A DNA stretch of 64,000 nt from Psammoneis japonica (taxonomy: Eukaryota): contig QPGO01000008.1 of NCBI GenBank assembly GCA_008632985.1, positions 600,979-664,978 of the forward strand, in the 5' to 3' direction. Below are positions 2,289 through 34,589 of the stretch, piece after piece (position 1 is the first letter of the stretch; the number at the start of each line of letters is the position of its first letter). Made by a program: the position numbers and the translations under genes. The notes under the pieces are model-generated. The model was not told the DNA's origin. It was given only the letters and a program-made list of their open reading frames with translations, and ran no database searches.

Positions 2289-2321
<33 letters not shown>

Positions 2322-6274: not shown

Positions 6275-7000
6275 GTGGAAGGAGAGTGCATGAAAATGGC
6301 TCTGCAGGAGTTGAGGAGCATGGCATCTGTGCTGGAGGCATTCTGGGATGCATGCCAAGAGGCACTCAGGAAAAAACTCAACCACAAAAGGAACAATGTG
6401 CAGGACAATGCAAGGAGGAGGATGAAAGGCAAGCAACACAGTGCAGGCATTCAACAGACAGGATCATCTGATGGGCCAAGTGTGGGTTCCATTGTTTTCA
6501 TCAATGCAGTTGCTGCTTTGGAGGGGTCACTGGTTGAGTGAGAAAATTTGATCAAGGGCAGGGCTGACAAAGACATGCGCACATGGCTCTTGGAAATGGC
6601 CATGCCAACTGTGGTGGGCCAAGCACAGTTTGGCAGAAGCATGACCAGTTTGCTCCAAGAGGGACATGCCATGTCATTGGAGGCCTTTGCTCTGCTGGCA
6701 TGCTTGAGCCACTGTGACAAGGTGGTCAACATGGTGGAAAAATTGGAGAAGGATGATGACATTGCAAGGCACAGAAAGCTGATGACAAAAGATGCTGCAG
6801 CTGCAAAGTGCACGGCAATGGCAAAGGGGGATTGGCCAAGAGGAACCAAGGATGGAGCAAGGAGGGGATCAAGAAGCACAATGAACTGTGTGAATGGGCA
6901 AAGAAAGACCAAGAGGACAATGAAGGTTTCAGTGCATGGTTCAAGGAATGGAGGCAAGAGAAGGTGAACTTGTCTCCAAGGAGGCAGAGAAGAAATGCAA
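6275..7000 (+). pseudogene. Degenerate transposon-associated ORF (EAFALL...GWSxEGxxxYNxL...VxxDR type)
   Basis: SLEAFALL and GWSKEGIKKHNELCEWAKKDQE. Reverting CA/TG to TA and CA to CG gives WSKEGIKKYNELYEWVKKDRE, a motif I recall from repetitive diatom ORFs near Plavaka-type transposases. Confidence 0.45.
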
Positions 7001-9649
7001 GAGAGAGGAGAAAAGGAAGGAGAGAGAGAGGATGGATGGGGTGCACTGATGGGAGAGGACCTGCTGCACACAAGGCCAGTGGCTGCCTGCAATGACACAG
7101 AAGCAATTGCAGCCATGGCCAACAAACCAAACTGGTGTGTGAATGCAAACTGCAGCAAATGACAAAATCTGGAACATGGCAAAACCAAAGAGGCAAACTG
7201 CAATGCAATTGTCAGTCAAGAACAAATGGCAGTTGCAACATTTGCTTTCAAAACAACAGAAAGAGACAAAATGCAGAAGGATGTCACAGACAAAGATGGT
7301 GGAACATGTGCAGCAAGAGATGTGATGAAGGAATGAGGAACAGCAAATGTTGAAATTGTGGGCAAGAACATTCACACTTCAAAGTGGGGTGCAAATTTAG
7401 AATCAAAAAGCTCACAAACTTGGTCAGCTCTGAACTGACATTGCAAGGAAGACTTGGCTCACAAGTTCACAACAATCTGGGAGATTGCAGTCAAGAAATG
7501 CCCAGATTGTGACAGGTGGTCAGACCCAGATTGTTGGCATCCTGCTTTGCCAGTTGTTGGAGTTGAGCACATGCTGCTTCTCTTGATCATCTCTGTGTGA
7601 GCAGTGTGCTGAACTGTCTTTGACACAAATGGTGCAAACAACAAGTGAGAAATGTGATGGCATGCACATCCAGTGAAATTTTGCTGAGCTGCAAGTGTGA
7701 CAACAACAATTGAGAGGCTCTGTGATGGCTGAGATGCAGCAAATGCACAAGTGACCATCACTGCAGCTGTGGACCAGACATTGGAAATGGAGACTTTTCA
7801 ATTGCCAGATGCACAAAACCATTGTCAAAGGTGCCGAGAGACAAAAATGTGGCAGGGGCTGAGTGTCTCAGTGGTGCAGTTGTTTCAGATTTTGGATTGG
7901 CAACATTTGAATGCCCAAACTTGTGACACTTGTCATGGCACAAACACAGCTCCAAAAGGAGCCAAAAATCAGGGCTGAGCAACATCAGTCACAAACTCAA
8001 AAATCAAGCTCTGGACAATCTGGAGTTTTGCAACATGGACTTGAGTGCAGCCTGGTGAAAGTTCTGAGCCCAAGTGCACATTTTTTGTCAGCGTTGTCAA
8101 TTGCACCAACCCTCCAGGGCTTGTCTTTGTGTTGCTGAAGCATCACAGGAAGCATGGAATGAACACATGATCATGTGACTTGGCCAAGAAGGTTGTGTCA
8201 GCAGTCCAAAAGAGACAAGTCACAGAGTCAACAAAGGAGCACAAATCTGCCTGCAGCATTTCAAGCTGGGAGGCAGTGGCTGCATTGATTTCTGCTGATC
8301 ATTCTGTGCCTGCACTTTCACCAATGACACAAGGGTCAACAGCACTGGCCCAGGTTTTCCCAGCTCACAGTGGTTTGGTCCCAGCAGCCATTCAGCCAGT
8401 GGGAATGGATTTGAACAGATTGAGATTGTGGCAACAAGTTGCTGTAGATGGAGTTAAAAAAGGGATAAAAAGAGGACAACTCTGCACCAACATGAGAGCT
8501 GCAATTGCTCAAAAGTCAACAACAGTTGTTGTGGCACTGATCTAGAGGCAAAGCAGGGGTGGCAGTGCAGAGCAACCCCCCAGGGCCCCTGCAATGTGTG
8601 CTGACATCAGCAGGGCGGTGCAACTGATGGTGACCAACATCCAGCAGGGTGGCTGGGCTGTGGCTGAATGCCACATCTTTGCATGTCAAGAGACACAGAT
8701 CCTCTGCTTTTGTTTGAGGATGTGCGGGAATGTGATTTTCCTGCTCTGACTTTGTGCTGTGCAACATCCTGGTTGCTGCTGTCCTTTCTGCCCGGTGCAG
8801 CGGATGTGTCAGGATGGAGCACACATGAAGGCAACTGTGTCCATGATTGCAGCACAGCTGAAAAACTGACCACAGCTGTGGCATCACATGAGCCACATGA
8901 GAGACATGTGAGCACAGCAGCCAACCCTGGTGCAGCAAAACTGTGGCTGATCAGAAGACCATGGAAGCCAAGAGAGACCCACATCACCACCACATCAACT
9001 TGCTTGTGAGTGAGAAGCCTGGTGCGTGACAGCTGGTCTTGGTCAAGTTAGGAGTTGCAAAGCTGTGTCAGAGAAGCTCTGGATGATCTTACAAATTTTT
9101 TGAGTTTAGCTCAGCAGCACCCCAGACCTTTTTTCCTTCATGCTGAATCTCTTTTTGAGGCACAGTCTGCAGCCCTGGAAGAACAGCCATGTGTCCCTTG
9201 TGGGGGCAGGAGCATCATCCAGCACCTCTTTGCAAGCAGGAGGATTGTCAGACCACCTGTTGGTTGATGCATGTGCCTTCTGGAGCAGAAGTGCTTGTCG
9301 GCTCTCCAGGCTTGAACACGCCTTGTGTGGAAACATGCACTTTGCCCCCTCGCTCTTTGTTGTTTGCTCAAAGGCTGCCATGCTCAGGGATCTGCTGCCC
9401 CATGCCGTGGTTGTCCCCACTGCAGTTGCTCCCAACAACAACTTTGTCATCCTTGTGACAGTTGGTCTTGTTTGGCCAGCAGATTGTCTGGGCTGGGCTG
9501 GCGGGGACGGCACCTCTTGTGTCAGCGTTCAGAGGTGGTGGGTGTCTCACAGCAGCCAGCTGGGCCATTCCAGCTCACCTTGCCATCTCCATCATTCTCT
9601 GTTTCTTTTTGTTCCTCCTCATTGTGGTCAAAATCATTTTTGGTTGGCA

Positions 9650-10023
9650 TCATGGTCCAAAAAGCCAGGCAAGGGGCTCCTCCTTGTTTCCACCCCACGG
9701 AGGAATGACCCCACGACACATCATGATTGTCCTCTCAAGCATCAGCACATGATCACAGTGACTTGGGGAGGCTTGGCAAGGAAGATGAGGAGAGTTGGAA
9801 GGGAAAATTTGAACACCATGTACACAACAGGGTTCCAGGAAGTCTCTGTTGCAAGGATCAAGGCCCAACGAAAACTGAAGGGGAACGAATCAGAATCAAT
9901 CTCCAAATCATCGTCAAGCATTTTGGTTGGTCTGACAGTTGCACGTGCAGAGCTCGAAAGCCACCGCACGCAAGAGAAGCGGACAGAACTGGAACGAATG
10001 AAGCGAAGCAGCGGCATATCCAT
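9650..10023 (-). pseudogene. Candidate host gene head (mitochondrial-presequence-like) decaying into block A
   Basis: MDMPLLRFIRSSSVRFSCVRWLSSSAR lies head-to-head with the UCH gene. CpG-rich at the 5' end and progressively TA/CG-poor downstream. Confidence 0.3.
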
Positions 10024-11823: not shown

Positions 11824-13561
11824 TTATGTGCATCCCTCTTCGTTGGGAGTCTTGAAGTCACGCATGTGAATCCTGTAGGTGGAGAAGAATGAAAAAGATT
11901 GTAAGAGAAGGATTATCACCGAGACGTCTTGAAAAAGGATTGGTACTTCATACTACTCACCATGCATTTGCGCCATACTGGACGTGGAGAAGAATGAAAA
12001 AGATTGTAAGAGAAGGATATCACCGAGACGCCTTGAAAAAGGATTTGTACTTCATACTACTCACCTTGACGCCTTTAATTACCGGCTTCGCTTCTGCAAC
12101 GAGGCATGAAAAATGATGTAAACAATGAGAACAATCATCACGAGCTCTTGAAATAGGCCTTGCACCACAAACTTACCGTGAATTGTTCGACCGTCCTTTT
12201 TGTCCGGATCTTCATCGAGAACACTTGGCCAAATGACGGCTCTACCGCGCTTGGGGGTCACCGTCATGCCAAGCATGGGGAATTCAGTGCCACCGCCTTC
12301 CTCGACGTCATTCAAATCTAAAGTAGACAAGAAAGGGAAGCGAGTTAGCTTGCTATTGAGAAGTCTCGGCGGACACACCGATTCCATATTCCATACTTAC
12401 AAATATAAACGGTAAGTAGTCGAACTCCGCTTTGGCGATCGAGCTGGTGTGGAATGTAGTCACTGTGGGTATGGTAATACTGGTTTTCTTCGTACTTGAG
12501 CATTTGCAAGTACTCGGAGTTGAGTTCAGGGATACCTGTGAGGTTGGAGATCCTGTCCATGACATTCCTTGCCAATGGATCCTTGTAGCATTCGTTTTGA
12601 CACCACGAGTTCATTGAAGTACGCCCGTTGTTCACAAAGTTGTCGTAAGTTCCATCGAACTTGCGCTCTCCCACATCAGAACTCCTCTCGTATCCCTCCT
12701 CGGCACCCAACTCAATGAGCCTTTCGCACTCTTCCGGAGTAGCGAATTCCTCAAACATGACTGCCCATGGACCAATATGGTAATCATCCTCGGCCTCTTC
12801 TTGTCTCTCCACCTGACCAGCTGCTGACTCTTCGTCTTTATGGGGCGCGGCCCTTGGCGAAAGACAATTCTTGTCCGGTTCAGGTCGAGAGAGAATCTTT
12901 GGCTTGAACTGTTTGTACTCCTCGTTGGTGACGATACGTTCAAACATGCGGTTCAAATCGCCTGGCTTCCAAACGTTTTGTTCTCGAATGGCGTCCTTAT
13001 CCAATGGACAACGGCTCTCAAACATCAACTTGTCGCAAGACTGGCACGAAGGGGCACAGTTGACCACCATGTAAGCGGGGTTATTTGTACACTCCCCTAG
13101 CAAGGCCCAAAAGGCGCAGTCCTCGTGTTGGTTCTTGCAGTGAGTCTTGATTTCTGTGTACTTTGGCTCGGTATACACAACGTCCCTCATATAAGCCATT
13201 GACTTGTCAATCCACGCCTGTATCTCGTCAGCGCGTGCTCCAACGACATTCTGTGGAACTCCGAGATCAATCGCACTTTACAGTATTGTTGCATACGGGG
13301 GGCGTGCATGATGTGGGTGAGGAAAAAACGAAAACAGCAGGGGAGGTCGAAGCACTCAAAGTAAACTTACACCGAGTCCTCCTGTTTGACGCTTCGAACT
13401 TCTTGTCCTAAACTTGGAGCGGCTTGCTGTAGAAGACATTCTCCATCGCTGTTAGTCTGACATTCTCCGTCGCTTTTGCTGCTGTTCAATCCGAGAACGA
13501 CACTCGCAAGAACAACGGAAATTGCAACAATGAAGTTACGGGGCTTTATGGATGAAAACAT
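11824..13561 (-). CDS. Secreted/ER ShKT-domain prolyl 4-hydroxylase (P4H paralogue 1), 6 exons
   Basis: Signal peptide MFSSIKPRNFIVAISVVLASVVLG; ShKT CKNQHEDCAFWA..ECTNNPAYMVVNCAPSCQSC; 2OG-Fe(II) motifs RTS, HSDY, YLNDVEEGGGT, H-E, KYGANAW; C-terminus IHMRDFKTPNEEGCT*. Introns include 11873-11960, 11978-12064 and 12094-12176. Confidence 0.9.
11873..12064 (-). repeat. Two near-identical adjacent introns (88 and 87 nt) flanking a 17-nt exon
   Basis: 11873-11960 and 11978-12064 differ by 4 substitutions and 1 indel. Both are GTGAGT...CAG on the minus strand. Exon 11961-11977 encodes YGANA(W). Confidence 0.9.
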
Positions 13562-17893: not shown

Positions 17894-20800
17894 GCGGGCT
17901 AAGTTCCTTGCGTCAAAATACGTGGAAAGGTTTGTTGTCGGCGTCACGGGCTGCGGCGCGGCATCGTGCTCCGCGCTGCGCGTGGGCACGAACGTCGCCC
18001 CAGTAGAATACGATCACTCTCTACTCTAGCTAGCTGCCACTCTAGAGAGTAGCTGTAGCAGCTAAACCCCATCGCCGTACTAAAACCAACATGGTCTCAC
18101 TGCGAGTTGGTCTAGGACAAGAAGATGATGTTCCGCACTGCTGCAATTGCGCTGGTCGCCGTGACCTCCCGCTTGCTCACAGGGCCAGAGCAGGGCCACT
18201 GTCTTCGTCACAGTGGGTGGACACAAGAAGGACAAGTGAACCCGAAATGCAAACCTGCCAAAGTGCAGAAACATGCCCATCAACCTGAGCCTGCTGCTGT
18301 CGACAGCAACATGGAGCGGCACATTTCAAATGTGTGTGGTGGTGTTTGTTTGAGATTCACCTGCCACATCCACACACCACACACCATCATGTGATCTTCC
18401 TTTTGTGCAAGAACACACTCTGTTGCTTGGCTTCTTTTTGCAGCGGGGCTCACCACCTTGCTTGGCTTGGCAATGTGACCCCTTGATGCACTGTTTTTGC
18501 AGCGTGCTGAGTGCAGTGGCAGGTGATCTGTGACAAGGAGCACACATGCTTTGAGAGAGAATCCAGAAGAGGAGCTGCTGCAAATTGTGCTGGAGTGAGC
18601 CAGTGCACTCCCAAGCACATCTGAGCTTGCGGGGGGAAGACCAAGAGACAAAAGAGCAGAGAGAGAGAGCAGCTGAGCAGAGCCACCTGTCTTTCTGCCA
18701 AGCACAAAAGCAGTTGTGCAGATTTTGAGGATGAGTTTCACATGTCTCACAGAACAGCTGAAGCATCTTTCTTTGCTTGTTCTGACATGAGCACCTGCTG
18801 GGGGGGGGGGCTGTGGCAATGACAAACAAGGTCAGTCAGCTGCCAACAGAAAAGCCCCCCCCCCAGCAAATCAGAAGAAGAGCAAGAACAAAGGGCAGAG
18901 TGGGTGCTTGACCCACTTGAAGCCCAGCTCAAAATTGATGCTGTGTGTTTCTTGCCCATGCCCCACCCCTTGCTCTTCTTTTTCTTCTTCTTCTTTGCTG
19001 TGAAGCACAGATCATCTGCTTGCTGTGAAGCAAAGATCATCCTCTGCACCTCAGCCAGAACCAGTTGGAGAAACTGAGGGCATCATTGTGGGATGAGCAG
19101 CAGCAGGAGTTGTTTGGAACAACATGTGCTGCATCTCAAAAGATTGGCCTGCTTGGTGTCTTGACATTTGCAAGTCTGATTTTTGGCAACAAAGATGGGC
19201 AATGGCAAGGTGTGACCTCTGCAAATTGATGCGCATGAAGAGAGTGTCAGCAGGCAGCAAAATGTCACATTTTCTTTGTGCTGCCACCATGCCAGCATCT
19301 CAACCAGCTAACTGCCAAGCCCTGTGTCAGCTGCAAATGTGCGCAGAAGCTTTGGTGTCATGTCAAATGCTTTTCCTTGGCCTTTGCTTCCCCCTTGATT
19401 TTGAAAGCAGGTTTCATGACATCCTTGTGATGTTGTGAATTGTGCATTCTTCAAAAACAAGCTTGGAGTGAGCAGCAAACTGCAGGGCTGTAGAAGCCTT
19501 TGCTTCTCAGCTCCCAGACTCAAAGGCACCAAAACTCAAAAGCATCAAATTTGTTAAAAACAAACTGTGCCTGTCTCAGCAGCAGCAGCAACAACAACAG
19601 CAACAATGACAACAGAACGCACCCAACCTTGCTCCCAACTGAATGCACTGCATTTTGTAAAAGCTGAGACAACTTTGACAAAATGGGAGGACAGCACTTT
19701 GTGCAGAGCACATGAATGAAAGTTGCACAGATCTTGAAAGCAGCAATTTGCTGGTCCTCTCAAAAGTTTTTGGAACAATGGATGCCTTGGCAAAAAAAAC
19801 TCAGCTTTGGCAAATGAAGGCTCTCAATTGTCTCACAGTCCTCAGGAGGATGTGTGCACAACAAAATGCACTGACTTCCCCACTTCACTTTTCAACTCCT
19901 GGGCTCAAAAGCACCAAGTTTCCTCAGAGCAATGATGTGCCCATTTGACAACAAGGCCATTGCCCTTTTGTTTCAGTCATTTGTCACACTGCTTGCTCTT
20001 TCACAAGCATGGCATGCTGCCATGTGCTGCAGAAGTTTTTGAAAGAGTCAGAGAAAGAAAGATTTTTGGGTGTGTGCACATTTGAAGTGTTTGCTGTCAA
20101 TTTTTTGTGCCATGCCTTTCAGCACAGAATCTTGATCCAAGCATCAACTTTCACATGGCTGTGCAACAAAACAAAAAAAAGCTGAATTTTTCCCCTCAGT
20201 GGAGCTGTGCAACTTGATCTGTGGTGCTTTCATGTGCAAAGCCCAAATCCTGATCTTTGTCAAGTGCCTGCACGGGCTGACTTGTGCCAAGCTGAGCTGA
20301 AGCTCCAGAGAAAATGTGGGGAGTCAAGTCAAAAGTCAGCTGACACTGGTGCTGCTAAAGTTGCAAAGCTGTTGCTGGCTTTGGTCCCTTGGTGCAGCTG
20401 CAGTGCCAAACATGCCCCACAAAAAGTTGGCCAACCTTCATGGCAAGCTCAATGCCATGGGGAGAACAACACCTGCCTGTTTTGGTGTTTTTGCAAAAAA
20501 TTGGCTCAAAGAGCATGTTGCTGTGAAAGTGCTCCTCTCTCAAGCATTTGTGGCTCCAACAGGGGTCAAAGTCCAGCCAATTCTCCTGACAATTTCAAGG
20601 TGAGTGTGGTCCACATGGGGTGCAAGACTTGCAACTTTGGAGACAGGCAACACAATGTTGTCCTGCCAACACCTGAGCAAATGCATGGCAACAAGAGCGC
20701 AAGACCCGCCCACCATTTTTGTGGGGCTCTGTTGCCCATTTGACCTCTTTGATGCTTTGAGCAGGTGGGGCTGCAAGCAACCCACAATGCTCATTGTGAG

Positions 20801-21122
20801 CCACACTCTTCCATTTTCAGATTCAACACCTGCACCTTTGCAGCCAAAACAAGCCAGGGAGGAGGAGCTCCACTCACTCAAATTTGTGGGGTCAGTGGTC
20901 AGCAGCTTCTGGCCACTTTCTTCTTGAACCATGCACCAAGAATCTTTGGATGAACTTTGGCTTGCATTTTTGTTTCTTGCTTGCTCTGAGCCAACTCTCT
21001 CCAACTGGAAAATGCAGAATGCAGAACCACTGCAGTTGACACTTCCTTGAAGAAATTCTGTGTGAAATGTTGCCATTTGTTGCCATTCAGGAGAAAACAG
21101 TTGGACAAGTTTCAATGGAGCC

Positions 21123-21283
21123 TGACAGACATCCGAGATGGGGAGTGCACTCCCTTGTGTCGGACAGACTGGCATGGACAGCATGGAGAGATCCGATGAT
21201 CTCTCCTTTGCTTGCTTTCTTTCTCATTGAGTGCACGATTGTCATCTGTCCTGGATGTCCGTTAGATTGTCCCGACACCGCCA
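21123..21283 (+). repeat. 5' LTR
   Basis: TGACAGACATCCGAG...CCGCCA; aligns without gaps to 28027-28187 with 15 mismatches. Confidence 0.95.
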
Positions 21284-21493
21284 GTCCGTGAGGTTGTGAG
21301 CAGCAGTGCGCTGTTCCTCTTCCTCTGTGCTCCTCCACCGCAACGCCTGTTGTGTGACTTGGCGACCTTTTCTTCATTGAAATCGTCATCATTGTCACAG
21401 CTGTTTTTTCACCTCTCAATTTGTGATCAAACGACCACCGCAGAACACACACCAGACCTCTGCGCAGGAATTTGATTTTTTTCCCGTGCAACC

Positions 21494-23595
21494 ATGGTGA
21501 ACAAAAATCAAAACACCGTCGATTTGACCAAGATCAAGACAACACGGGTTGAATTCAGCCCACATGATTGCTTGCCCGATGCCCACATTTTCCTGAACAC
21601 CTTCCATTCGGACGCAATCCCTGCTCCTGAAGATCTTTTAGATGGATTTGCTCCTCAAGGCCTCAAGCACGATGCTGTTGCTGTTCTCCATCATGAGATT
21701 GTTCAGAATCTCATCATCCCTGAAGCTGCCCTGACCAAAGATCTCACATGAATCAGGCCGATCATTGAAAAGGCCCCTCTCTTTGTGGCCACCCCTCAAG
21801 GCTCCCCGGTTCATCTGAACCTCAGCACTCTTCAGAACGCTGTGGTCGAAGCGATCACAGAGAATCACAGCACCACAAAGGCACATGTTGGCACTTTACG
21901 TTTCCATTTCAGTCCTGGTTTCTCCGGCATTGTGATTGCTGGGATGACATTTCAGATGATCCGCATCCAGTCCCACCGGCCACTTCAAGTTCTACATCCC
22001 CATCGGTTGCTGCTGCAGGTCCTGCTCTTGAAGACTTTGCCAAGGCCTCAGCTGCTCATTTGCCTGGTCCAAAACAGTTTGAGCAAGCTGTGACAAATGC
22101 GTTGAAGAACTCCACTCCCAAGGTGTCATCTCCTGCACCATCTGCCATGGCTGCCACTGGCACAGCTTCTTCATTGACTGCTGCCAGTGCCTTGCACACC
22201 TTCAATCTGAAAGGACTTCCAAAGGATGTGCTGGCCTGCTGTCAACGCAAAGAAGCCGGGAAAGCAGTGCTCGGAAAATCACTGGCACCTTGCAAGTCTG
22301 GAAACCTTTGTCACGAGGATGGTGCTGAGCGTCTGATCCTCACCGATGGTTCTCTCTTTGTTCATTGCACTGACTGGGATGCGAAGTCTTTCCTTCGTGA
22401 CCCTCTCACTTGTGACAATGTCTCTCCTCAAGGAATTCGTGCGTGGTGCACCACTGCAACCCAACAAGCCTCGGCTTGTGGCATGTGCATGCACCCTCTG
22501 TGGTGTTTCATCAAGGATGGTGGAAACTGGGGTTTCACATGTGGCAATGATCCAACCGATGATCTCCCTCTCCAGATGACTGTGCCACTGGACCAAATGA
22601 AACTGACCATCTTCCAGCACATTCAGAAAGTTGGAATTTTTTCCGGCAGAGTCCAAGCACCCTGACATTGTTCGTCAATGCTGTGGTGATGGATGTGCTG
22701 CTGTCAAGATGATTCTCTTTGACATCCCGCCGATTTGGACGAAGCGTCCACATGAGTTGATCAAGAGCCACCCGCACCAAAACAATCTTGTGGTCCTTGG
22801 CTGCCATGCTCTCTTCAGAGACCACCTCCAGCTGCGAGCTGTCATCTCCAACGTTGATGCTTCTCTTGACAACCCTGGTGAGCTGGGTGTTTTTCTCAGC
22901 AATGCTCGCCATGGCGAGCACCTTCACCACAAAAAACCGCAGATGCCCGGGAAGACAAGAATCAACAACACAAGTTCACACAGAAGAAGATTGTTGAAAC
23001 TGTCAGTGCGATTCTCAAGGAACCGGATGGCCCTGCTCTTCGTGTCAAGGACCCTCCCAAATGTCCTCTACGTCGTCTTCACACTTCGCCTGCTCCTTCT
23101 CTTGCAGCTCCCGTCTGAGGTCTTGACTTGCTTCCCAAAGATGAAGTCTCTCCTCCGCCTCCAGCGATTGAGGAGCCTCCCAAGGAACCTGAACCTCCTG
23201 CTGCGGAAGAACCTGTGGAAACCATGGAGCATTTTGTGAATGAACTTGCTGCTGTGGATGTCCCCACAGATGATGATGCACAGGCCCTCCATGGTGTCTG
23301 CAAGGCCTGCATCCACAGGATCAAGTCCTCTCCTGCCATTGCACAGAACCGTCCGTGTGCAGTTTGTGGTGACAACCACTTGTTCCATGAGTGTCCTGTG
23401 TTGAATGATGCTGAGTGCCTGCGCACTCATCTCATTTGGTTCTCCCAGTTCCTCCAACATGATCAGCATGCTCGTGATGCACTCAAGTCTGACACAGCCA
23501 AGAAGGATTTTTCCTGGGGCCATTGTCATGTTCCGACAAACAATGCCGCCCATCCTCCTCCAATCCAAAAATTCCTGCAAGCAGGGCAACTGTGA
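21494..23595 (+). pseudogene. gag-like region of the Copia element (interrupted)
   Basis: Successive broken ORFs after the 5' LTR; zinc knuckle RPCAVCGDNHLFHECPVL near 23350. Confidence 0.7.
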
Positions 23596-23838
23596 AAGAG
23601 GGTCCAACCGACTCGTCACCTTCCGCTGATGTTCCTCTTTCACCTGTGTCATTTGCCAACCATCTTTTGGGCTCGACGAAGGCTGGCACTCCAGATCCCA
23701 AGACGATTCCTGATGATGACCCTGGCAATCACAATCAGGGGAGGGAACCAGACCTTTCTACACTGGATGCTGATGTCCCATTGTCCACTGATCAAGACCA
23801 AGAATTTGAGCATCTTGACATGACCAACACCCCTGCAT

Positions 23839-26800
23839 TTGTCGCCCCTCAGTGCTGCACGCATCTCCCCAATTTTTTCTCCCCTGGAGTCACCTGCGAC
23901 CTTTGCATTCTTGACTGCTCCAGTCATCCCCATCAATCATGTGCTTCATGATTCAACGACATGTCGTGCTCAGATTGATGCTGGCGCTTGGGTGTCCTGC
24001 ACAGGGGACAAGAACCTCCTCCATGCCTGTGCTCCTTTTGGACTGGACAACCCTTGTCCTTTGAAGATTCTTCCTGCTGCTGAAGGCTCTGATGTGGTCC
24101 CTCATGGCTTTGGTTGTCCACAGGTGCCTGCAGACAATCCTGAAGGTTTTCTTCTTGTGTGCACTTTTTACCATCCCAGCCTGCATTCCACTTTGATTGA
24201 CAAACGTGATTTTGCACGGGCTTCTGGTTTCAAACCTCAGTCCATTCGATCCGAGGTCGGTGCTTGCACTCACACTGCTTCCGCTGATGCTCAAGAGGCA
24301 GTTGTCCATGGCATGCTTCGACATGGCAAGGTCTTCACACAACCCCTGGTTCCTCCGTCTGCATCTCATGTCCCTTCAACATCAACGACCCCTGACTTGT
24401 CCTTGGTTGATGATGTTGATGATGTTGATGATGCATGCCAATGCGCAGTCTTTTTTGTCAATGTCCAACAAAGTCCATCCGATCCCTTGCTGATGGATGC
24501 TGAGCTGTTTTTGATGCAGTGTGACTCGGCTCCCCATGTCTCACCTCCGTTGTCTGCCCCTGCTCCAGTCCGCTCTCTCAAGGTTGAGACTGAACATCTT
24601 CTGTGGCATCAATGCCTTGGACATCCCAGCGATCACTGCTTGTACAATGCTCACAAGTGCATCAAGGGCGTCCCGAAGTTCCAACATGCCAATCCTGTCC
24701 TTGACATGTGTCCTGCGTGTGTCCAAGCCAAGCAAGTCAAGACTCCTGCTGGACCAAACACAACCCAAAAGGTGACCCAGCCATGCCAAGGCCTTGCTGT
24801 GGATTTTGCTTTCGCTGGCCAGGCTTCCAAGAATGAAGACTGCAAGGTTGATCATCTTGGACACAGTGGTGAAACGTGTTGGATCGCTGTCTACGATCAT
24901 CACACACGGATGCTCCATGGAGTGGCAAGGGTTTCCAAAGCCAGTCCTCTCAAGTGGCTTTGCCGATTCTTGGATGGACATTCACCAAATTGTCGTGACA
25001 AATGTGCACTCATGGACCAAGGTGGAGAATTGTGCAAAAATCCCAAAGTTCGTGACCTCTTTGAACGAGAATTCCAGCATGACATCTGTCCTTCTGGCGC
25101 TGGTGCATCCAACCAATGTGGACCTGTTGAACGCTCACATTCAACTGTTGAAAATGCGATTCGTGCAATTTTAATTGGTGCCAACCTTCCGATTCGATTC
25201 TGGCCCTGTGCTTTTTACCATCACCTCTGCATCAAGAATGCTGCTCCTGCAAAAGATCAAGATGCGGCACCCATCACTCTTGCCACCGGAAAGGTTGAAG
25301 ATTTTACTGCTCTGAAGACTTTCAGATGTCAAGTGTGGTCCAAACGGTCCACTGCTCGTTCTGCTGCTTTCCGGACCAATTCCAAGAAGGGTGCATTCCT
25401 TGGCTGCCTTCCAAACACCCTGAAGAATGTTGTGTGGTGGGATCCTGAGACTGATGAAGTCAAGACGGCCAAGCATGTGTGCTGCGATGAAGGTGTGAAT
25501 GATCTGTTTTTGGATCAACTTCCTCCCAATGCCATCCATTTACAGTGTGTGGAAAATGGTCAGCCTTTTCCAGCTGAAACACAGGACACCACCGTTCCTC
25601 TGTTTGCCTCTTCGTCGAATCCTTTTGCTGCAACTGTTGCATGTGCCATGAAACGTCCCCCAAAGGATCCCACCTGTGGTTTTGGATTTTCCCAGTGTGT
25701 GCTGATGGACCGTGTCTGTGCATCACAAATCAAGCAGTGCAGTCATGCAGCATCTTTGTTCTCTTCTCTCCGTGCTGCTCACAACAAGATTGTGGGTGCA
25801 TGCATTGTCTCTGTCAACAAGCATGAAGCATTTGCTCCAAAGGATGCTGAAGAGGCTTTGTCTCAGGTCTTCCATGATGAAATCCCGACCTTCGAGATTG
25901 CTTTTGCGCCGGAACAATGATTGGATTCTCGCACCCTTGATGAGGCATTTGAGGAAGCGGAGTTGTTTGAACCTGATTCCTTGGAGGATGACTCCCATGT
26001 TCCTGAACTCACTTTGGAGGATGTGTGATCTGTCACGGCCCTTCTCTGTCCTGATGATGATTTTTCAGATGAGGCCATCCCTGCTGATGTGTTCCATGCC
26101 CACCTCAATGCGATTTGCTCCCGCTCTCTCACTCCGGAGGAAGCTGCTCTTGACTGCCTCACCCGTGCCAAGCTTCGTAAACTTGACACATGGCCTGAAT
26201 GGGAAGAAGGCGAGCAGCGTCAATTGGATCAATTTTGTGCCCTTGGTGTGTGTGGTCCTCCTCAACCACGTCCCCCTGGCGTGAACGTCATGCGTCCGCA
26301 TTGGGATCACATGGTGAAGCCGGATGGACAACGTCATTCTCGGCAATGTGGTGATGGTTCCAAGTCGGAAATGCCGGCCTTGCACAAGTTGACTTCCACC
26401 TGTTTGTCATGTGTGGAACGCTCCATCAAAAAGATGTTTTTTGCTCTCAGTGCAGCTGTGTCACATTGTGTCTTCGGCGGTGATGCTCGGGATGCCTGCG
26501 CTCATTCTCCTGGTCCTTCACAGCCAGTTTTCGTTGCTGTTGATGATGCACACATGCTGCCTGGCATGAAAAGAGATTTGGCAAGAAAGCGCCCCGCCAT
26601 TGTGTTCTCCCACTCAAGCATGCTCTTCAAGGTCACCCTGAAGCTGGTGTCCTTTGGGAAAAGCACATCAACTCAATTCCAACGGGTGCAAAACTTCTTT
26701 TCTGCAACGCTGCTCATGACAAGTGCATCCATTCTGGTGAATGTGATGGTGTCAAGGTCCTTCCACTCCATCAGGTCGATGATTTTGCTCTTGCTTGTCC

Positions 26801-27884
26801 CTCCAAAAAGATTGCAAAAGAGATCTACAACCATGTTGGCAAGGCTCTCCAGATGGAGAATGAGGGCACTCCTCCGTTCAAGTGTTTGGGCTCAGTTGCT
26901 GAGTTCAACGGCATTGATGTCATCCAAAATGACGGCTCGATTGCTGTCAATGTTGCCAGCTGCCTTGATCATGTTTTCAAGACCCATGGTTGGGATGCTC
27001 CCACTGCAAATGAATCTGAGTCTGATTTCAAGGCTGCACCTGTGCCGGTTGATTGTGTCCCTGATCTGTGTGCCACTGAAGGTCCTGAAGAGGGCACTCC
27101 TGAGTGCAGTGCTCTTGCTGAGTCCCAGGGTTTCTCTTGCCGTTCTGTTCTGGGTGAATTGGTCTTCACCTGCTCCTGTTGTCGTTTGGACATTGGTCAT
27201 CCCATTGTTGCCTTGTCCAAGTTTTCCAAGGCCCCGGCTGAGCTTCGTTGTGATTCACTCAAGCGCATGGCCAAGTGTTTGCGGTGCACCAAACATTGGG
27301 GGCTGACGTGTGAGAAGTCCAAGCGCGATCCCGGTCTGCCTCCTTGCAATTTCGAGTGGCTTGAGGATGACCCATCTCTCCCGGACTTCCCTTGTGCTGA
27401 TGACCTTTTCCAACTTCTTGGTTTCATTGACACAGCACATGCCAGTGAACCATGGCATCGCCGCTCTGCTGCTGGATGTGCGCATGTCCTTGCTGGTGCT
27501 GCAATTGACTGTTGTTGCCATGCACAGATGATTGCCACCACCAGTTCCACGGAAGCTGAGTTTCTCGCGGCTGTTGCTGGTGCGAAACAGACCCTGTGCC
27601 TCCGCATGGTTCTGGAAGAATTGGGCTTTCCTCAACGTGATCCTGCTCCCTTGCACATTGATGGCTCCTCCGCCATCCAGATGTTCAATGACAAGGTGCC
27701 TGCGGAGCGATCCTGCCATGTTGACATTCAACATTTTGCTGTCCAAGACTGGTGTGACACAGGCAAGATTGTCACTCAACATGTCCCGGGTGTCATTGAC
27801 CCTGCTGATGTGCTGACCAAGGCTGTGGGTTGGACGATGCTTCGTTCCCGCCATGCCCGCCATTTGATGGGACATTGCCATTGA
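23839..27884 (+). pseudogene. Copia pol (protease, integrase, RT, RNase H) with frameshifts, stops and hypermutation
   Basis: QIDAGA (protease), LWHQCLGH, CPAC, VDFAF, DQGGEL, GPVERSH, FWPCAF, FLGC, RPHW, GGDARDACAHSP, ALQGHPEAG, HQVDDFALA, GFIDTAHA, SSTEAEFLAAV, HVDIQHFAVQDW, DPADVLTK. Confidence 0.93.
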
Positions 27885-28026
27885 CTGTCATCAGGTTTTG
27901 TTGTGGATTGAGTCTTGGGTGTGTCTCTTTTTTCTTTGTTTTGTTCTTTGCCATTCTGGTCCTCTCTTTTCATTCGGATCGTCCATTTTTTTCTTGTTGA
28001 GCATTGCATTGCTTGTCAGGGGAGGA

Positions 28027-28187
28027 TGACAGACATCCGAGATGGGGAGTGCACTCCCTTGTGTCGGACAGACTAGCACAGACAGCATGGAGAGATCCGA
28101 TGATCTCTCCTTTGCTCACTTTCTTTCTCATCTAGCACACGATTGTCATCTGTCCTGGACATCCATCAGATTGTCCCAACACCACCA
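28027..28187 (+). repeat. 3' LTR
   Basis: Preceded by the PPT and followed by TSD GAGCC. Confidence 0.95.
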
Positions 28188-30844
28188 GAGCCAAGCCACC
28201 ATGCTCTCCACAGCAAAAAATCTTGGAGCTGCATCCTTTGCTTGCACAATGATGGGCTCAAGCCCATCACAAGCACGGCACAGAGTTGCAGCACATGCCA
28301 TTGCATGTGGCAAAAGCATGTCTTGGCAAGCTCTTCTCTCTAGAATGAGGGCGGTCTCTTGAGTGGATGACCTTGTGGCCCAGTCTTGAGCAGGGTGTGG
28401 CACAGACAAAACATTCCAAAGTCTGCCAAGGGAGAAAGGTCCAAAGCAAACAGAGTTTTGCACAAGTTTGCCACTGCTGGGAGCTGACTTTCATTTGCTC
28501 CTCATGGTCACACCCAGGCAGGAGGTTCGAGGGAATCCAGTGCACCTGGCACACCACTTCAAAGTGTTGCTGAAAGGTTGGCACCCAAAGCAGGCAGTTC
28601 ACAGCACACACATCATTTTTTGTGACATCATGACTCGCTGTTTTGTCCAGCCTCTGTCACCATTGAGTGGAGTGCAAACAAGTCAGCACCATCAGCATGG
28701 CCCGCTTCCATTTGAGCTTCTTTTTGCAAAAGAAAAAGTGGAGGATGCTGCTGAGAAAAGTGGTGCACCATTTGGCCATTCTTTTGTTTCCTTGCCAACT
28801 CATGCTTTGTGTTGCAGCAGTTGCAGTGGCCACTTTTGCCAAGACTGCCACAGACTGGCTCAAATTGTTTTTTGTCACTCATCTGGAAGAGATCCTGGGC
28901 ACCACATTTTTGCCGTGGGTGCTGCAGCTCTGTCATGAAAGTTGTTTTGTAGATCCATGTCAACACCCTGGTTTTGTTGGAGCCAGCAACATGCCAACAC
29001 ACCTTCCTTTTGATGTTCTCATCACAGTTTTTTTGGGTCAATCACCATGTTGGGTCTGTCAACAGCATGAAGTGGACCACACAGACAGCATGACTGAGCC
29101 TCTCCATCATGTCAAAATGCCCTCCATTGCCACATGCAGCCACCACATGATTTTTTCAAGCACAGCCAAAAACATCAACTGCAACAGCATCAAAGCAAGT
29201 GTTGCAAGCAAGCCACAAGCTGTGGCAACAGAGATGATGCTGCAGCCAGCAGGCAGTGAGCTTTTCCAGCCCAGCAGCAAAGAGCGAAGCTTGCAACATG
29301 TGCAGGTGCCAGAAGGAGCTTTTGTGGTGAAGTTGTTGGACTTGGACATGGCAAAGATCTTTGGCTGCTTCTGCCTGCCCTTGCTGCCATCTTCTGTGAC
29401 ACACCCTTGGCATCCTGTTGTGATGGCAGCAGGTTCACATGCCTGTCACAAATTCCAACATTCTGCACTCCTTGTGGGCTTCCCCCTGCTGTCATGTTGC
29501 TGTGGCCACATTTCCACATTTTGTGGAACCAAGCTCAGCTCTCATGTCTTTCAGACAGCAGCTCTTGTCAGGATCAAGACTCAGACACTCAAAGCTTGGA
29601 TTGGACTGCTGCTGTCAGAAGCTGAGCGCTGGCCTCAATGGCAGAATCTGTGGGGTTCTTGCAGTGAAGCCATTCATGGATGCACTGCAGAGCAACCAGG
29701 AAATCAGCACCACACAATGATGCAGAAGCCAAGGTCAAGGCAATGTGCTCATGAGCAGACAATTGTTTGGCTCACACTTGCTGGAATCTTCACTTGACAA
29801 ACACCTCACCTGTGCATCACACACGGTGAGAAATTGGCTGCAAATCTGTGGCAAAAACAACACTCAAAAGTTGAGCATTCAGGGAGCCAAAGGTTCACTG
29901 CTGGAGGCAAACAAGCCATTGAGTGAAGAGGGTGCATCCACCTGCCCCCTCAAACCACAAAGTCACCCATCTCATTGACCAGCAGCATTTGGGTGAAATG
30001 TGCTCCAGTGCTTGCATTTGCAGGCAGAGCCTGTCATGCAAAACTGTGCTTCCCACATGCAGCCACTCCTGTCCCATGGTGGCACCTTCACCACACTTCA
30101 CCTGGTCACAAAGTGCCCACACTCTGACAACCTTCTGCCTTGCATGATGGCTCCCGCCCAGGAAAATGGCCACATCCTTCAGCCCCCCACTGTCTGGAGC
30201 TCTTCAAGCTTTGCTGGTGCTGCAGGTGGACCTGTGTGAATCCAACCAAATCCATGCAGAGCAGAGGAGTTGTCAGAGCTGTGTGCTGTGTTTGAAGTGT
30301 GGCACCAGCTGCTGCAGAGCAGGCAAAGTGATGCAATGACTCTTGGTCACTTGACCAGCTCAGTGTCTGGCCATCACTGACCAGGCTGCTGTCGCTGGCC
30401 GGAACCCAAGTTGCCTCTTGCCACTTGAGTTGAACTTCCCTCATTTGACCTCTCTCACTGCATCAAGAGAGGTGGCAAAAAAGAGACTTTTGTCATTTTG
30501 CAACAACAAAAGTGGACAGCTAAAAGGAGACCTCTGTGGTTCTAGCTGTTGCTGTCACCGTGGTGGAGTGGTCTGGAGTTAAGAGCTCCGTGAATGACAG
30601 ACCTGTGCCACCAAATCTACATGGAGTGGAGTTATCACCTCGTTCTGTTCGAAGCGGCGTACAGCAAAAAGGCAAGTACTTCTACACTGCACTGCAGGCC
30701 CTCTCTGTGTAGCTTCATTGCTTCCGGACAATAAAAACGGAAAGAAACATCGTGATGTGATCTATTACTACTGTGGAGTGCCCTAATCTCTACTCAGCTA
30801 CCGGCAAACTAGGTTCCTTAATCTGGTGAACAATGCAGTCACCT

Positions 30845-32547
30845 TTATGAACAGCCATTATCGTGAGGTGTGATGTAGTCCCTCTGGTGCAACTGCCCGA
30901 TTGTGAGAACAACGAAAGAAAGTCCTGTTAGACACATCGAACAACGAGTGAATCATCGTCAGGCGATTGCATGGTATACTCACCCATGAATTTACACCAT
31001 ATTTCACACCCTTGATGACTGGCTTTGCTTCTGAACGAGGCATGAAAATGATTCGAACGATTAGAATAATCATGAGCTCTTCAAATAGGCATTGCATCAT
31101 AGTCTTACCATGCTCGGTGCGTTCATCGATGGCGTTGGGATCGTCGTTCAATACACTAGGCCACAACAGCGCTCTTCCACGTTTAGGTTGAACCGTCAAA
31201 TCGAGATCTGGGAAGCCTGTGCCTCCACCCTCCTCCACATCATTCAGATACAAATAAAGTGTCATCAGTCTGACCCCCTGCGGGCGGTCAACTTCAAAAT
31301 CGATATAATCGTGATGCTTGACATAGTGCTGCCCAGGCTCGTACCTTAAAAGTTGGAGGTGCTCAGAATTGTTTTTCGGGATCCCCGTCACGTCTTCAAT
31401 TCTCTGAATAACTGATTGAGCAACAGGATCCTCGGCACAAACGCCCTCGCACCACGCGTTGGTCGAGGTGCGACCTTCGTTAACGTCATCTTCAAATGTG
31501 CCATCAAAGCTCATTTCACCAACATCTGCGCTGCGTTCATATCCCTCCTTGGCACCCAGCTCAATGAGCCTTTCGCACTCTTTCTGCGAGGCAAAATTCT
31601 CTAAAATCACCACCCAAGGTCCAATTTGATAGTCAACGTTCGACGCCTTCGAGTCACCCTTGGCCAAATACGGACGAGACAACGCGTGAGGCTGATACTT
31701 CTCATACTTCGGAAAGGTAAGAATCTTTTCAAACATATGATCCACGTCGCCGCTTTCCCAGACGCCTTTATCGGTCCTATCCCACGGACATCTCTCTTCG
31801 TGCAGTAGCTTTTCGCAAATCTGACACGCTGGTCCACAATTCATAATCATGAATTCGTACTCTTTTTCTTCCTCATCGCAGGCTCCATCGAGGGCCCACA
31901 AACTAAAGTCGCCCAAGAAAAATCTTCTGATGAGCCAATTCTTGTCGGAACAAGGTATCGGCACACTTGGTTCAACTCACCTGCAGTCCTCTTCGAAATT
32001 TTTACAATGAAACCTCACTTTTTCGTATTTGGGCTCGATCATTACCACATTTGTCATGTATTCAACCGCCTTATTCACCATGTCCTTGACCTCATCCGAA
32101 CGAGTCCCTGCGTCGTTTGTGGGACGCCAACACTTATGGGCTCGCTGAAGTAACGAGGAGAATCCAGGGATGCAATGAGAGACAAAAACACTTATCGTGC
32201 ACGATGATACATCGGTACAAAATGAACTACACACATCATTCCTGAGCCTACCAGTATTACTTACTCGCACATCTTACAAGCCTTCCGGCAGTATTCCTCC
32301 ATAAAAGAAGGGTTCTCTTTACATTCACTAGGCTTGAGATTCGCCCAAAACTCACACTCTTCGTCCTCGTTTACACATGGGTATTCCGAGATCACTCCAC
32401 CTCGATGAGATTGTATTCATCGACGTCATCTATGCACGTGCCATCAGCAGAGCAGTTTTCGTCAAGCTCTTCGCCAAACAAGAGACTCGGTATCAGTATT
32501 AGTACACTTAAGATAGAAGCGTAACGAAAGGCCGAGACAAACATCAT
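30845..32547 (-). CDS. ShKT-domain prolyl 4-hydroxylase (P4H paralogue 2); two apparent -1 frameshifts near the 5' end (pseudogene or consensus error)
   Basis: Signal peptide MMFVSAFRYASILSVLILIPSLLFG; two ShKT domains; GRTS, HHDY, LYLNDVEEGGGT, KYGVNSW, LHQRDYITPHDNGCS*. Frame breaks near 32415 and 32117. Confidence 0.8.
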
Positions 32548-32811: not shown

Positions 32812-34589
32812 TTATTGACAATTATTTTCACTCGGGGTTTTGAAGTCCTTCTGGTGCAACTGTTTCATGAAAAGCGGGCAAAGCGTGAGACATATGGCCT
32901 GCAAGAGACCTTTTTTACAAATCTAGTAGAGAAGTCGTAAACTCACCCACTGGGCAGTGATACGAAAGTTTAATTTGTGAGTGACTGAGTGAGTGACTGA
33001 GTGAGAAACTGAGTGAGTGACTTACAGCATTTGCACCAAATTTCACGCCCTTTTCGACAGGTAAAGCGGCGTGGTAAGTCCGACCGTCTTTACGATTCGG
33101 GTGGCTGTCCAACACGCTAGGCCACAACAGAGCTCTTCCACGTTTTGGTGTAACTGTGAGTTTCAGATTCGTAAACTGCGTTGCTCCTCCTGCTTCAACA
33201 TCGTTCAAGTACAAAAACACCGTAATGGTTCTGACCCCACTCTGCCGGTTGACCTGGTATGGTATGTAGTCATGATGCATCTGGTAGAACTCGTTTACCT
33301 TTATTGCCGTCGTTCGGCGGGCAATGGTTACGGATAAGAAAGACTGCATTTCTAACACTTCCACCAACCAGAGCCAGACTCACCTCATATTTCAACAACT
33401 GAAGATATTCAGAGTTACGTTCCTCGATACCAGTTAGATTAGCGATTTTCTCCATGACAGTCTTTGCAACGGGGTCTTCGTAACATGTGTGTTGACACCA
33501 GGCATTCTTGGAGGTGCGGCCATCATTGACATTGCTTTCAGTCGTCCCGTCAAATTTCATCTTGCCCACATCAGCACTTCGCTCGTATCCCTCTTCTGCA
33601 CCAAGCTCAATCAATTTGTCACATTGTTCTGGAGTAAGGAAATCATCAAGAACAACAACCCACGGCCCGTCTATCGGCGCGCTTTCGTCGTCAGCTTCGT
33701 TATTCGACTTGAATTTTAGCAAGCTTTTGATCCGATCGGTAATACCCTTCTTCTTCTTCTTCTCGTCAGTATTCTGTACTGGTTCCTTGCCTTTTGGTAC
33801 TTTACTCTTTGCAGGCTTGGATAGAATCTGTGGATTATACTTTTCGTATTCTTTGTCTGTCACAATCCGCATAAACATTTTGTTCACGTCACCTGGCTTC
33901 AACGCATCAGGTGGCAAATCATCCATCGGACATCTGGTCTCGTAGTCAATCAAATCACACGTCTGACAAGAGGGGGCGCACTGGAGCTGCATGAAGTTAG
34001 GGTTTTTCTCACACTCGCCGATAAGTGCCCAGAAAGAACAGTCGACGTGACGGTTCTTGCAATGCCGCATTACTCTCTTGTACTTTGAATTCACCATAAC
34101 CTCCGTTCGCATGTAGTCAATAGTTTTCTCCAGAATAGCTCGAATCTCGTAAGCACGCGGACCAGCGAGCTTCTGCTTTTCACCTAAATCAAACTCAAGG
34201 TCATCCTCAATACTAGGAAGCACAATCCTATCAGAAAAGTCACATCATGCAGCGTGTCAAAACTGAGAGAACGAAGCACGAAACATACTTTCACGGCTAA
34301 TTCTTCGGGCGACTTACATGTTCTCGCAAGCGTTGCACGATTTACGGCAATTGTGCAACATATAATTGGGATTGGCCTCGCACTCGCCTTTACGGGCCCA
34401 GAATTGACATTCCTGATGCTCATCCTCGCACGATACTGCTGCACCTTCGGCGTTGTTGTCCGTGCAAGTGCCGTCATCAGCCGAGCAAGTTTTCGCATCC
34501 ACCCCGCCACTTTCTACGACCGATACTGTGTCACTACTAGCAACCAGAATGAGATTCAGAAGGACGATTAATAGCGAGATTCTCTTCAT
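32812..34589 (-). CDS. ShKT-domain prolyl 4-hydroxylase (P4H paralogue 3) with a predicted 3-nt micro-exon
   Basis: MKRISLLIVLLNLILVASS; two ShKT domains; GRTS, HHDY, FLYLNDVEAGGAT, HAALPV, KFGANA|W|LHQKDFKTPSENNCQ*. Confidence 0.9.

Follow-up and report, generated by a model that had tools for sequence, protein, structure and literature searches.

Differences between the long terminal repeats of a diatom copia retrotransposon as a probable read-out of hypermutation at TA and CG steps

Introduction

What made the two long terminal repeats (LTRs) of a single retrotransposon differ by 9.3%, almost exclusively through transitions, and at which stage did this happen? This question is raised by a 64,000-nt stretch of the genome of the diatom Psammoneis japonica (GenBank assembly GCA_008632985.1, contig QPGO01000008.1, positions 600,979 to 664,978 of the forward strand), which we refer to as the window and whose first letter is position 1. 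The LTR pair belongs to a dead, multi-copy Ty1/copia retrotransposon of 7,065 bp, located at 21123-28187. An initial annotation of this pair had proposed that mutation was aimed at TA and CG sites, and that each LTR was edited on its own, in the chromosome, once the element had inserted. We report that the LTR differences are probably the local read-out of a two-armed, dinucleotide-specific hypermutation that strikes repeats and spares neighbouring genes. The anatomy of the element, the depletion of TA and CG around it, the direction of the changes, and the sequence motif at which they occur are described below, after which we weigh the alternatives for the origin and timing of the LTR differences.

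The LTRs differ only inside pyrimidine-purine steps

The element carries the following features:

21118-21122: target-site duplication GAGCC, left copy, 5 bp, read from the sequence
21123-21283, forward strand: 5' LTR, 161 bp, TG...CA ends
21284-28026, forward strand: internal region, a degenerate gag-pol spread over several reading frames, with 14 TA only
23824-25920, forward strand: 698-aa open frame, integrase region (Pfam: gag_pre-integrs, E 1.7e-6, below the Pfam cut-off; SH3_retrovirus, E 3.5e-6)
26547-27884, forward strand: 445-aa open frame, reverse-transcriptase region (Pfam: RVT_2, E 0.002, below the Pfam cut-off)
28019-28026, forward strand: polypurine tract GGGGAGGA, adjoining the 3' LTR
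28027-28187, forward strand: 3' LTR, 161 bp, TG...CA ends
28188-28192: target-site duplication GAGCC, right copy, 5 bp, read from the sequence

The TG...CA ends, the 5-bp duplication on both sides, and the polypurine tract confirm that these are genuine LTRs of a genuine element. For the 698-aa frame, 2,335 relatives were found at E <= 0.001 (best 5.8e-174, 45% identity), and the 445-aa frame aligns with the reverse transcriptase/RNase H part of these relatives. The integrase region lies upstream of the reverse transcriptase, which is the copia order, and full-length relatives align in the same order.

Contigs of a public DNA run that contains the window (run X1, which is not independent of the window and may be its own source sample) pile up on the element: 3,372 contig pieces map on it, 485 of them at >=99% identity, and the summed contig depth is 1,200-5,000 on the element versus 45-100 in its flanks. 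The family is therefore multi-copy. Within the rest of the window, blastn and tblastx found no further copy. One run X1 contig of single-copy depth (37) joins position 21102 to position 28191 without the element, and the two flanks also exist in another version, 2-3% different from the window, mostly through transitions, with a TG/CA double at 28308-9 among them. This is either a paralogue or the empty allele.

At an offset of 6904, the two LTRs align without gaps and are identical at 146 of 161 positions. The 15 mismatches (9.3%) consist of 14 transitions and one transversion (G/T at 21229), in agreement with the initial annotation, which had also listed the dinucleotides involved correctly:

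21175-6, 21213-4, 21232-3 and 21256-7: four doubles, TG in one LTR versus CA in the other
21261, 21274 and 21280: three CG versus CA differences (G/A)
21170-1 versus 28074-5: TG versus TA
21263-4 versus 28167-8: TA versus CA
21228-9: an odd mismatch pair, the last two of the 15

To these positions we applied a permutation in which 14 transitions and one transversion were placed at random on the 5' LTR 30,000 times, scoring a pyrimidine-purine (YR) step when present in either LTR. All 15 mismatches fall inside YR steps, versus a mean of 7.4 in the permutations (P(>=14) = 0.0003), which bears out the proposed concentration at steps of the TA and CG type. The four TG/CA doubles compare with a mean of 0.21, and none of the 30,000 placements attained four; adjacent mismatch pairs numbered 5 versus a mean of 1.30 (P = 0.004). 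Put differently, 15 of 77 positions inside YR steps differ, and 0 of 84 outside. Because all differences sit in YR steps and none elsewhere, the LTR divergence is useless as a clock here, as had been anticipated. The further caution that a TG/CA pair can derive from either TA or CG was correct and still holds.

The transitions are also oriented. All 14 read T/G in the 5' copy versus C/A in the 3' copy. When each double is counted once, the 10 informative sites (4 doubles and 6 singles) all point the same way, for which simple arithmetic gives P = 2 x 2^-10 = 0.002; this pattern was spotted post hoc, in a single LTR pair. With 10 of 10 sites strand-oriented, it is not established that each LTR was edited on its own in the chromosome following insertion.

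TA and CG are depleted in repeat blocks across the window

The composition of the LTRs is part of a wider pattern. Six blocks that together make up 38% of the window (565-9821, 18113-21122, the copia element, 28188-30521, 51101-53208, and 63215-64000) have a TA observed/expected ratio (O/E) of 0.01-0.11 and a CG O/E of 0.08-0.70, while TG and CA are raised to 1.5-2.0. In contrast, three genic stretches show a TA O/E of 0.60-0.71 and a CG O/E of 0.98-1.06, and their TG and CA are not raised. The blocks group as follows:

565-9821: block A, TA-free (TA O/E 0.04, CG 0.11, TG 1.86, CA 1.83), in which no Pfam domain was found
18113-30521: block B, TA-free, an older unclassified repeat that hosts the nested copia element
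51101-53208: block C, TA-poor (TA O/E 0.11, CG 0.70), overlapping an inverted-repeat element and a tandem array
63215-64000: block D, TA-free (TA O/E 0.02, CG 0.11), continuing past the window end

The copia element retains 17 TA in 7,065 bases (TA O/E 0.04, CG O/E 0.46), and the block B sequence flanking it is still more depleted (TA O/E 0.01-0.03, CG O/E 0.08-0.10). The CG O/E is thus graded, from 0.70 in block C through 0.46 in the element to about 0.1 in the repeat around it, but the loss of TpA is near-complete everywhere, and the process that removes TpA is therefore the faster one. Block edges are sharp, as TA-free gaps of up to 1,571 bases stop within a few hundred bases of genes. The G+C content of the blocks is unchanged or higher (0.48-0.54). 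A microsatellite origin was rejected, since just 8-16 bases per block lie in (TG/CA)n runs. In the interior of the element (21501-28000), the TG share of TG+CA goes from about 0.40 at the 5' end to about 0.65 at the 3' end; it is then down to 0.42 across the 500-base stretch with the 3' LTR.

Because TAA and TAG are almost gone and TGA is the sole stop left, depleted blocks carry long open reading frames (ORFs) on both strands, with 35 ORFs of >=100 aa in the 8.3 kb between 20500 and 28800. A Pfam search of 50 ORFs from the depleted blocks other than the element gave two weak matches below the cut-off (SAM_3 and TrmE_N), neither of which identified a block.

Block C contains two repeats in which copies can be compared:

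51429-53218: element of 1,790 bp with 102-nt inverted repeats (arms 51429-51530 and 53117-53218, 97% complementary)
51689-52231: tandem array of three 181-nt units, inside the inverted-repeat element

The inverted arms differ at three positions, all of them CG/TG. Inside the element TA O/E is 0.12, and CpG shows a mild drop (0.66). The three tandem copies differ from one another by 3, 5, and 6 TG/CA doubles, in addition to CG/TG or CG/CA changes. Site 51778 of the array exists in three states, with TG in the first copy, CG in the second, and CA in the third. Both arms retain two TA in the context CTAA. The 1,790-bp element has CCC on both outer sides, which may be a 3-bp target duplication.

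The changes are derived, destructive, and copy-specific

The direction of change can be read from the protein-coding remains. Tyrosine makes up 0.2% of residues in ORFs of the element, versus 2.3% in host ORFs and 2.5-4.5% in relatives of the element, while cysteine and histidine are at 4.7% and 4.8% (2.5% and 2.6% in host ORFs). In an alignment with 18 relatives, the element has Cys (5), Trp (2), His (1), Gln (1), Phe (1), and Tyr (1) at 11 columns of conserved Tyr, and Cys (4), His (1), Gln (2), Lys (2), and Arg (5) at 14 columns of conserved Arg. Of the 443 conserved codons examined across the entire interior, 116 are altered. Among the 92 single-step changes, 26 are TA>TG, 10 TA>CA, 10 CG>CA, and 5 CG>TG, giving 36 for TA>TG/CA and 15 for CG>TG/CA. 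As these changes hit conserved residues, the two arms of the process are both derived and destructive, with the TpA arm outweighing the CpG arm.

A separate polarisation comes from the other copies of this family. Run X1 contigs that map on the element show 1,291 transitions versus 272 transversions at differing places, and the copy-by-copy comparison rests on 40 listed of these 1,563 places. Among those listed, the window copy has CA at 27451 and 27971, at which every other contig retains TA, and CA or TG at 24202, 27520, 27537, and 27714, at which every other contig retains CG. Since other copies keep TA or CG where the window copy has changed, the changes are copy-specific. Together with the protein conservation, this supports the annotated claim of a real mutation process aimed at TA and CG. 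At 27431-2 the window copy has CA and 11 of 11 other contigs have TG, where the protein consensus implies CG. At 21994 and 23069 TA is private to the window copy, and other contigs carry TG (17 contigs) or CA (19 contigs). Eleven of the 17 TA left in the element are TAC.

These results also bear on two further explanations. The first is that TA and CG are avoided for function, such as RNA stability or the avoidance of stop codons, and that the LTRs merely drifted apart. TA is indeed under-represented in most genomes, including the genes here (O/E 0.6-0.7). However, the losses destroy conserved Tyr (to Cys or His) and Arg (to Cys, His, or Gln) in a broken reading frame, relatives have 2.5-4.5% Tyr, and the depletion goes down to an O/E of 0.01-0.04, with its limits a few hundred bases or less from genes, making this explanation very improbable. 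The second is that modified bases in repeats gave rise to artefacts of assembly or base calling. Modified bases can give systematic transition errors on some platforms, and the repeats here are probably methylated. Against this, the run X1 contigs that cover the element (485 pieces at >=99% identity) likewise vary among copies mainly by transitions, the process recurs in independent metagenome assemblies (see below), and the amino acid pattern also appears in proteins from other sources. We consider an artefact the least probable of all explanations, to the point of being negligible.

Relatives undergo the same process at a T-A-Y motif

Among the 150 best representatives of the relatives, 10, from JGI/IMG and ENA assemblies, have less than 1.2% Tyr and 6.7-10.5% Cys+His. 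In one cluster at 90%, an intact 1,422-aa polyprotein was compared with four other members, and the main differences were Y>C, T>A, I>V, and V>A, with Y>C counts of 8, 2, 3, and 9 and Y>H counts of 0, 0, 0, and 1.

At the nucleotide level, 80 metagenome loci of a related copia family were compared, which were seeded with Tyr-containing peptides, so that edited copies are under-sampled. Their TA O/E ranges from 0.24 to 0.91. Between a TA-normal and a TA-poor copy, TA stands against TG or CA at 93+76 sites and the reverse occurs at 17+10, while CG changes are symmetric between the copies (54/56 and 43/41). In the TA-poor copies, 56-84% of TA sites were converted versus 24-30% of CG sites. Doubles between two TA-poor copies trace back to TA in 39, 24, and 19 cases versus CG in 3, 2, and 4, a ratio of roughly 10:1.

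The conversions have a context. TA>TG occurs at a rate of 0.42-0.46 when a pyrimidine follows versus 0.21 when a purine follows, and TA>CA at 0.40-0.44 with a 5' purine versus 0.16-0.20 with a 5' pyrimidine. Given strand symmetry, these two flanking biases reduce to a single rule: the edited A lies in T-A-Y, in which Y is a pyrimidine. The window follows this rule too: in its blocks, the 66 surviving TA have a 3' T in no case and a 5' A in 2, versus about 26% each for genic TA (P 4e-6 and 3e-10, respectively).

Some near-identical metagenome loci were found in different samples. L072 and L073 differ at 3 sites, and L051 and L054 at 2; in each pair one site is TA versus CA, and L072 and L073 also differ at one CG versus TG. 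This hints at ongoing change at TA and CG steps in natural populations. LTR pairs were sought among the metagenome loci by a repeat search on 7 of the 80 and a self-blast of all loci of >=4.5 kb, and none were found; an exact 28-nt LTR word had no matches in the metagenome contigs.

TA or CG behind the four LTR doubles

The four LTR doubles likely are a mixture of TA and CG origin. A TA origin is favoured by the roughly tenfold excess of TA-derived doubles in relatives and by the almost complete loss of TA in the element. Before conversion, two doubles would have read GTAC and ATAT, both fast T-A-Y contexts, while the LTR sites that still have TA in one copy are CTAG and TTAG, which are slow contexts.

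Alternatively, the source copy may already have lost its TA, in which case all 14 transitions would be cytosine deaminations that took place after insertion in a methylated chromosome. The doubles would then have arisen as CG>TG in one LTR and CG>CA in the other, and the TA/TG and TA/CA sites as new C>T changes at CpA/TpG. This predicts 11 ancestral CpG in the LTRs, of which 7 and 4 are retained, and the resulting 50% matches the CG O/E of 0.46 in the interior. The polarised double at 27431-2 is derived from CG, the three-state site 51778 of the tandem array shows doubles arising from CG, and the two private TA at 21994 and 23069 look newly made. In addition, diatom LTR elements have been reported to be methylated, in CpG context, both as "data not shown" (PMC2806351). 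On the other hand, other copies carry TA at 27451 and 27971, where the window copy has CA, so that the TA loss was not all inherited. The doubles of relatives trace overwhelmingly to TA (39, 24, and 19 versus 3, 2, and 4). The two singles that retain TA lie in Y-TA-R (R, purine), that is, in slow contexts, which fits a kept TA better than a new one, and the strand orientation is left unexplained. Taken together, we regard CpG decay as the sole source of the LTR differences as unlikely.

Editing before or after integration

According to the established textbook account of how LTRs form, both descend semi-conservatively from a single duplex, which consists of plus-strand strong-stop DNA and minus-strand DNA. 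The plus strand (the strong-stop DNA) passes to the 5' LTR, and the original minus strand to the 3' LTR. If this duplex were edited during reverse transcription, the premise of the initial annotation that LTRs are identical at integration would therefore fail. TpA, and perhaps CpG, would be edited before integration. Edits of the plus strand would show only in the 5' LTR (as G or T) and those of the minus strand only in the 3' LTR (as C or A), and a TA edited on both strands would read TG in the 5' and CA in the 3' copy. The two LTRs would differ from the outset, never having been identical in the chromosome, and the insertion would be dead on arrival.

The LTR pair fits this prediction closely: all 10 informative sites have the predicted orientation (four doubles with TG in the 5' and CA in the 3' LTR, and six singles with T or G in the 5' LTR; 0.002). 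Strand coherence is limited to the LTRs, the interior being without strand tracts. No ordinary divergence has accumulated at the 84 non-YR positions of the LTRs, and the single-copy-depth contig that joins 21102 to 28191 without the element fits a recent insertion. However, the orientation was noticed post hoc in one LTR pair, and TpA is also depleted in block C, whose tandem array and 102-nt inverted terminal repeats are apparently DNA-level repeats. The sole precedent for TpA hypermutation acts on integrated DNA-virus sequence in the chromosome. Unmethylated complementary DNA (cDNA) offers no cause for a CpG-specific C>T change, yet the three CG/CA singles share the orientation. Finally, an enzyme acting on single-stranded DNA would load the minus strand most near the polypurine tract, whereas the TG share rises toward the 3' end of the interior. 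Taken together, we regard editing at reverse transcription as possible, but less likely than not.

By extension, it is conceivable, with the same reserve, that diatoms restrict retrotransposons through a T-A-Y-specific DNA adenine deaminase that edits both nascent cDNA strands, an analogue of APOBEC3 acting by A>I instead of C>U. If this were true, insertions would arrive dead and stripped of TA, with LTRs carrying TG in the 5' and CA in the 3' copy from the start, and LTR clocks would start at several per cent instead of zero.

A probable two-armed hypermutation of repeats

We favour, as the probable explanation, a hypermutation with two arms, in which TpA and CpG, both self-complementary pyrimidine-purine steps, would be converted to TpG or CpA in repeats. 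The first arm, CpG>TpG/CpA, would be the ordinary decay of methylated CpG in silenced transposons, and would be the slower and age-graded one. The second arm, TpA>TpG/CpA, would consist of A-to-G changes on either strand, with the A preferably in T-A-Y, and would come near completion (TA O/E 0.04) before ordinary mutation leaves a mark. Its agent would most likely be a DNA-acting adenine deaminase of the TadA/ADAT kind; the T-A-Y preference resembles U-A-C, the anticodon-loop substrate of TadA. A rival chemistry would be oxidised thymine that mispairs with G, for which TET/JBP dioxygenases would be the candidates. The targeting of repeats may serve as a defence. Because the two arms push G+C in opposite directions, it remains at about 50%, even as Tyr codons and the stops TAA and TAG disappear. 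The changes would have been made in DNA.

Under this two-armed reading, the chromosome is the place of action by default. For the CpG arm this is well supported; for the TpA arm, chromosomal action in this organism would follow by precedent only. In favour of chromosomal action are that precedent, which concerns integrated DNA, the 181-nt copies with their TG/CA doubles, and the 102-nt arms, which differ at three CpG only.

Several observations weigh against the two-armed reading, besides its dependence on precedent for chromosomal action of the TpA arm. The orientation of 10 out of 10 LTR sites is unexpected under independent chromosomal editing, and the interior does not mirror it. Strand tracts were sought among 51 polarised interior events (26 runs versus 25.3 expected, P = 0.64), in TG versus CA counts of 150-bp interior windows (X2/df 0.99), and in three relatives (P 0.79, 0.10, and 0.11), and were found in none of these. 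The 15 LTR sites are unpolarised by other copies, as none of the 40 listed of the 1,563 differing places lie in the LTRs. The double at 27431-2 is CG-derived, so that the four LTR doubles may be due to CpG decay alone. The TA at 21994 and 23069 look like new C>T changes at CpA/TpG and not like unedited survivors. Lastly, the depleted blocks other than the copia element carry no identifying Pfam domain, and so may or may not be retroelements.

Comparison with known systems

The closest known system is that of the rhizarian alga Bigelowiella natans, in which integrated giant-virus and virophage DNA undergoes a hypermutation at TpA only (Mettrop et al., bioRxiv 10.64898/2026.01.13.699255). Changes occur there at about 6e-7 per site per generation, all at TpA and far above background, and an ADAT2 homologue was proposed as the agent (10.64898/2026.01.13.699255). 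As here, TpA becomes TpG or CpA depending on the strand, and the changes are confined to foreign or selfish DNA, with host genes spared in our window. Both cases show long-term depletion of TpA with a gain of CpA and TpG; in B. natans, TpA-poor coding sequences are enriched in reverse transcriptase and DDE domains. The targets described there are viral and the depletion is partial (cut-off Rho TpA <= 0.43; 0.45 for a region of nucleocytoplasmic large DNA virus (NCLDV) origin). In the present diatom, by contrast, it is an LTR retrotransposon and further repeats that are struck, and the O/E of 0.01-0.11 is always accompanied by CpG decay. The main text on B. natans describes neither a T-A-Y preference nor LTRs of opposite strand types, and its supplementary mutation tables (S2) may hold such patterns. 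The B. natans type of change is without accompanying GC>AT, whereas CpG>TpG/CpA accounts for 15 of 92 codon changes here. Most simply, the CpG change beside the TpA change is a second, separate process.

That second process resembles the deamination of 5-methylcytosine, in that CpG>TpG/CpA occurs in repeat blocks only, is symmetric between copies, and is age-graded (0.70, 0.46, 0.1). TpA removal is beyond its reach, so that it explains one arm. As diatom transposons have been found to be CpG-methylated (PMC2806351, PMC9998398), the CpG arm would be ordinary decay of methylated CpG.

In repeat-induced point mutation (RIP), the changes made in one round lie on a single strand within a copy, which resembles the strand coherence within each LTR. 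Fungal RIP targets CpA>TpA in Neurospora and TCG in Pucciniomycotina (PMC3318451, PMC12730594), and RID-related enzymes, DNMT4, whose function is not known, are present in diatoms (PMC9998398). The process described here shares with RIP a context-specific transition hypermutation of repeats that kills transposons and spares genes. RIP was nevertheless rejected as an explanation: it makes C>T changes only and yields TpA- and AT-rich DNA, while in the window TpA is lost, A>G outnumbers C>T (36 versus 15 codon changes), and G+C is 0.48-0.54.

ADAR favours a 3' G, which is a disfavoured context here, TAG and TAA being the survivors. It shares with the present process a preference for a 5' U in A>G hyper-editing (10.64898/2026.01.13.699255). 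RNA editing by ADAR was rejected as well, as it predicts identical LTRs and A>G on the transcribed strand only, while the LTRs differ here. Neither can it give a plus-strand T>C, and TA>CA accounts for 10 of 36 TA changes in the element and 76 of 169 in a relative. APOBEC3 edits the cDNA of retroviruses and LTR retrotransposons at C on minus-strand DNA, which gives G>A on the plus strand only (PMC4866542). Like APOBEC3, the process here would involve a deaminase that inactivates a retroelement, and at the same stage if the editing took place at reverse transcription. Unlike APOBEC3, it shows both strand types, with A as the main changed base and TpA as the context.

Full-text searches of the literature yielded no report of TpA-directed hypermutation in diatoms. 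The available text of an araphid diatom genome paper (PMC12718438) and of a 2025 diatom transposon preprint makes no mention of dinucleotides, TpA, hypermutation, or deamination.

Genes in the window

The genes near the depleted blocks include the following:

12345-13277, 30858-31976, 33270-34244 and 35065-36429, minus strand: frames with ShK and/or 2OG-Fe(II) oxygenase (prolyl-hydroxylase-like) domains
54824-57716, minus strand: valyl-tRNA synthetase, in two overlapping frames (54824-56755 and 56427-57716)

The four ShK/prolyl-hydroxylase-like frames form a small dispersed gene family that flanks the repeat blocks. The split of the valyl-tRNA synthetase, as read from the sequence, would imply an intron or a frame change. 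An ORF for a choline transporter near the repeat blocks has its best matches among diatom proteins, at 47-62% identity. Together these neighbours indicate a diatom host.

Implications

The 9.3% LTR divergence of the copia element is entirely hypermutation, and transposon ages based on identity would therefore be inflated in such genomes. The 2025 diatom transposon preprint, in which LTR elements were dated by identity, describes an unusually ancient insertion peak for two araphid diatoms (10.1101/2025.10.24.684338). Hypermutation may have a share in this peak. The orientation of LTR differences can tell editing before integration from editing after it. The vanished TAA and TAG stops leave spurious long ORFs on both strands, which are a trap for gene prediction, and edited copies escape homology-based classification of repeats, as seen in the two weak domain matches among 50 ORFs of the other blocks.

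Diatom repeats would supply many natural substrates, along with the T-A-Y motif, for finding the enzyme, and a natural DNA adenine deaminase would be of interest for base-editing work. TpA hypermutation has been described once before, in the 2026 preprint on a rhizarian alga. A saturated end-state of it in diatoms would widen this phenomenon to a genome defence of the lineages of stramenopiles, alveolates, and rhizarians (SAR).

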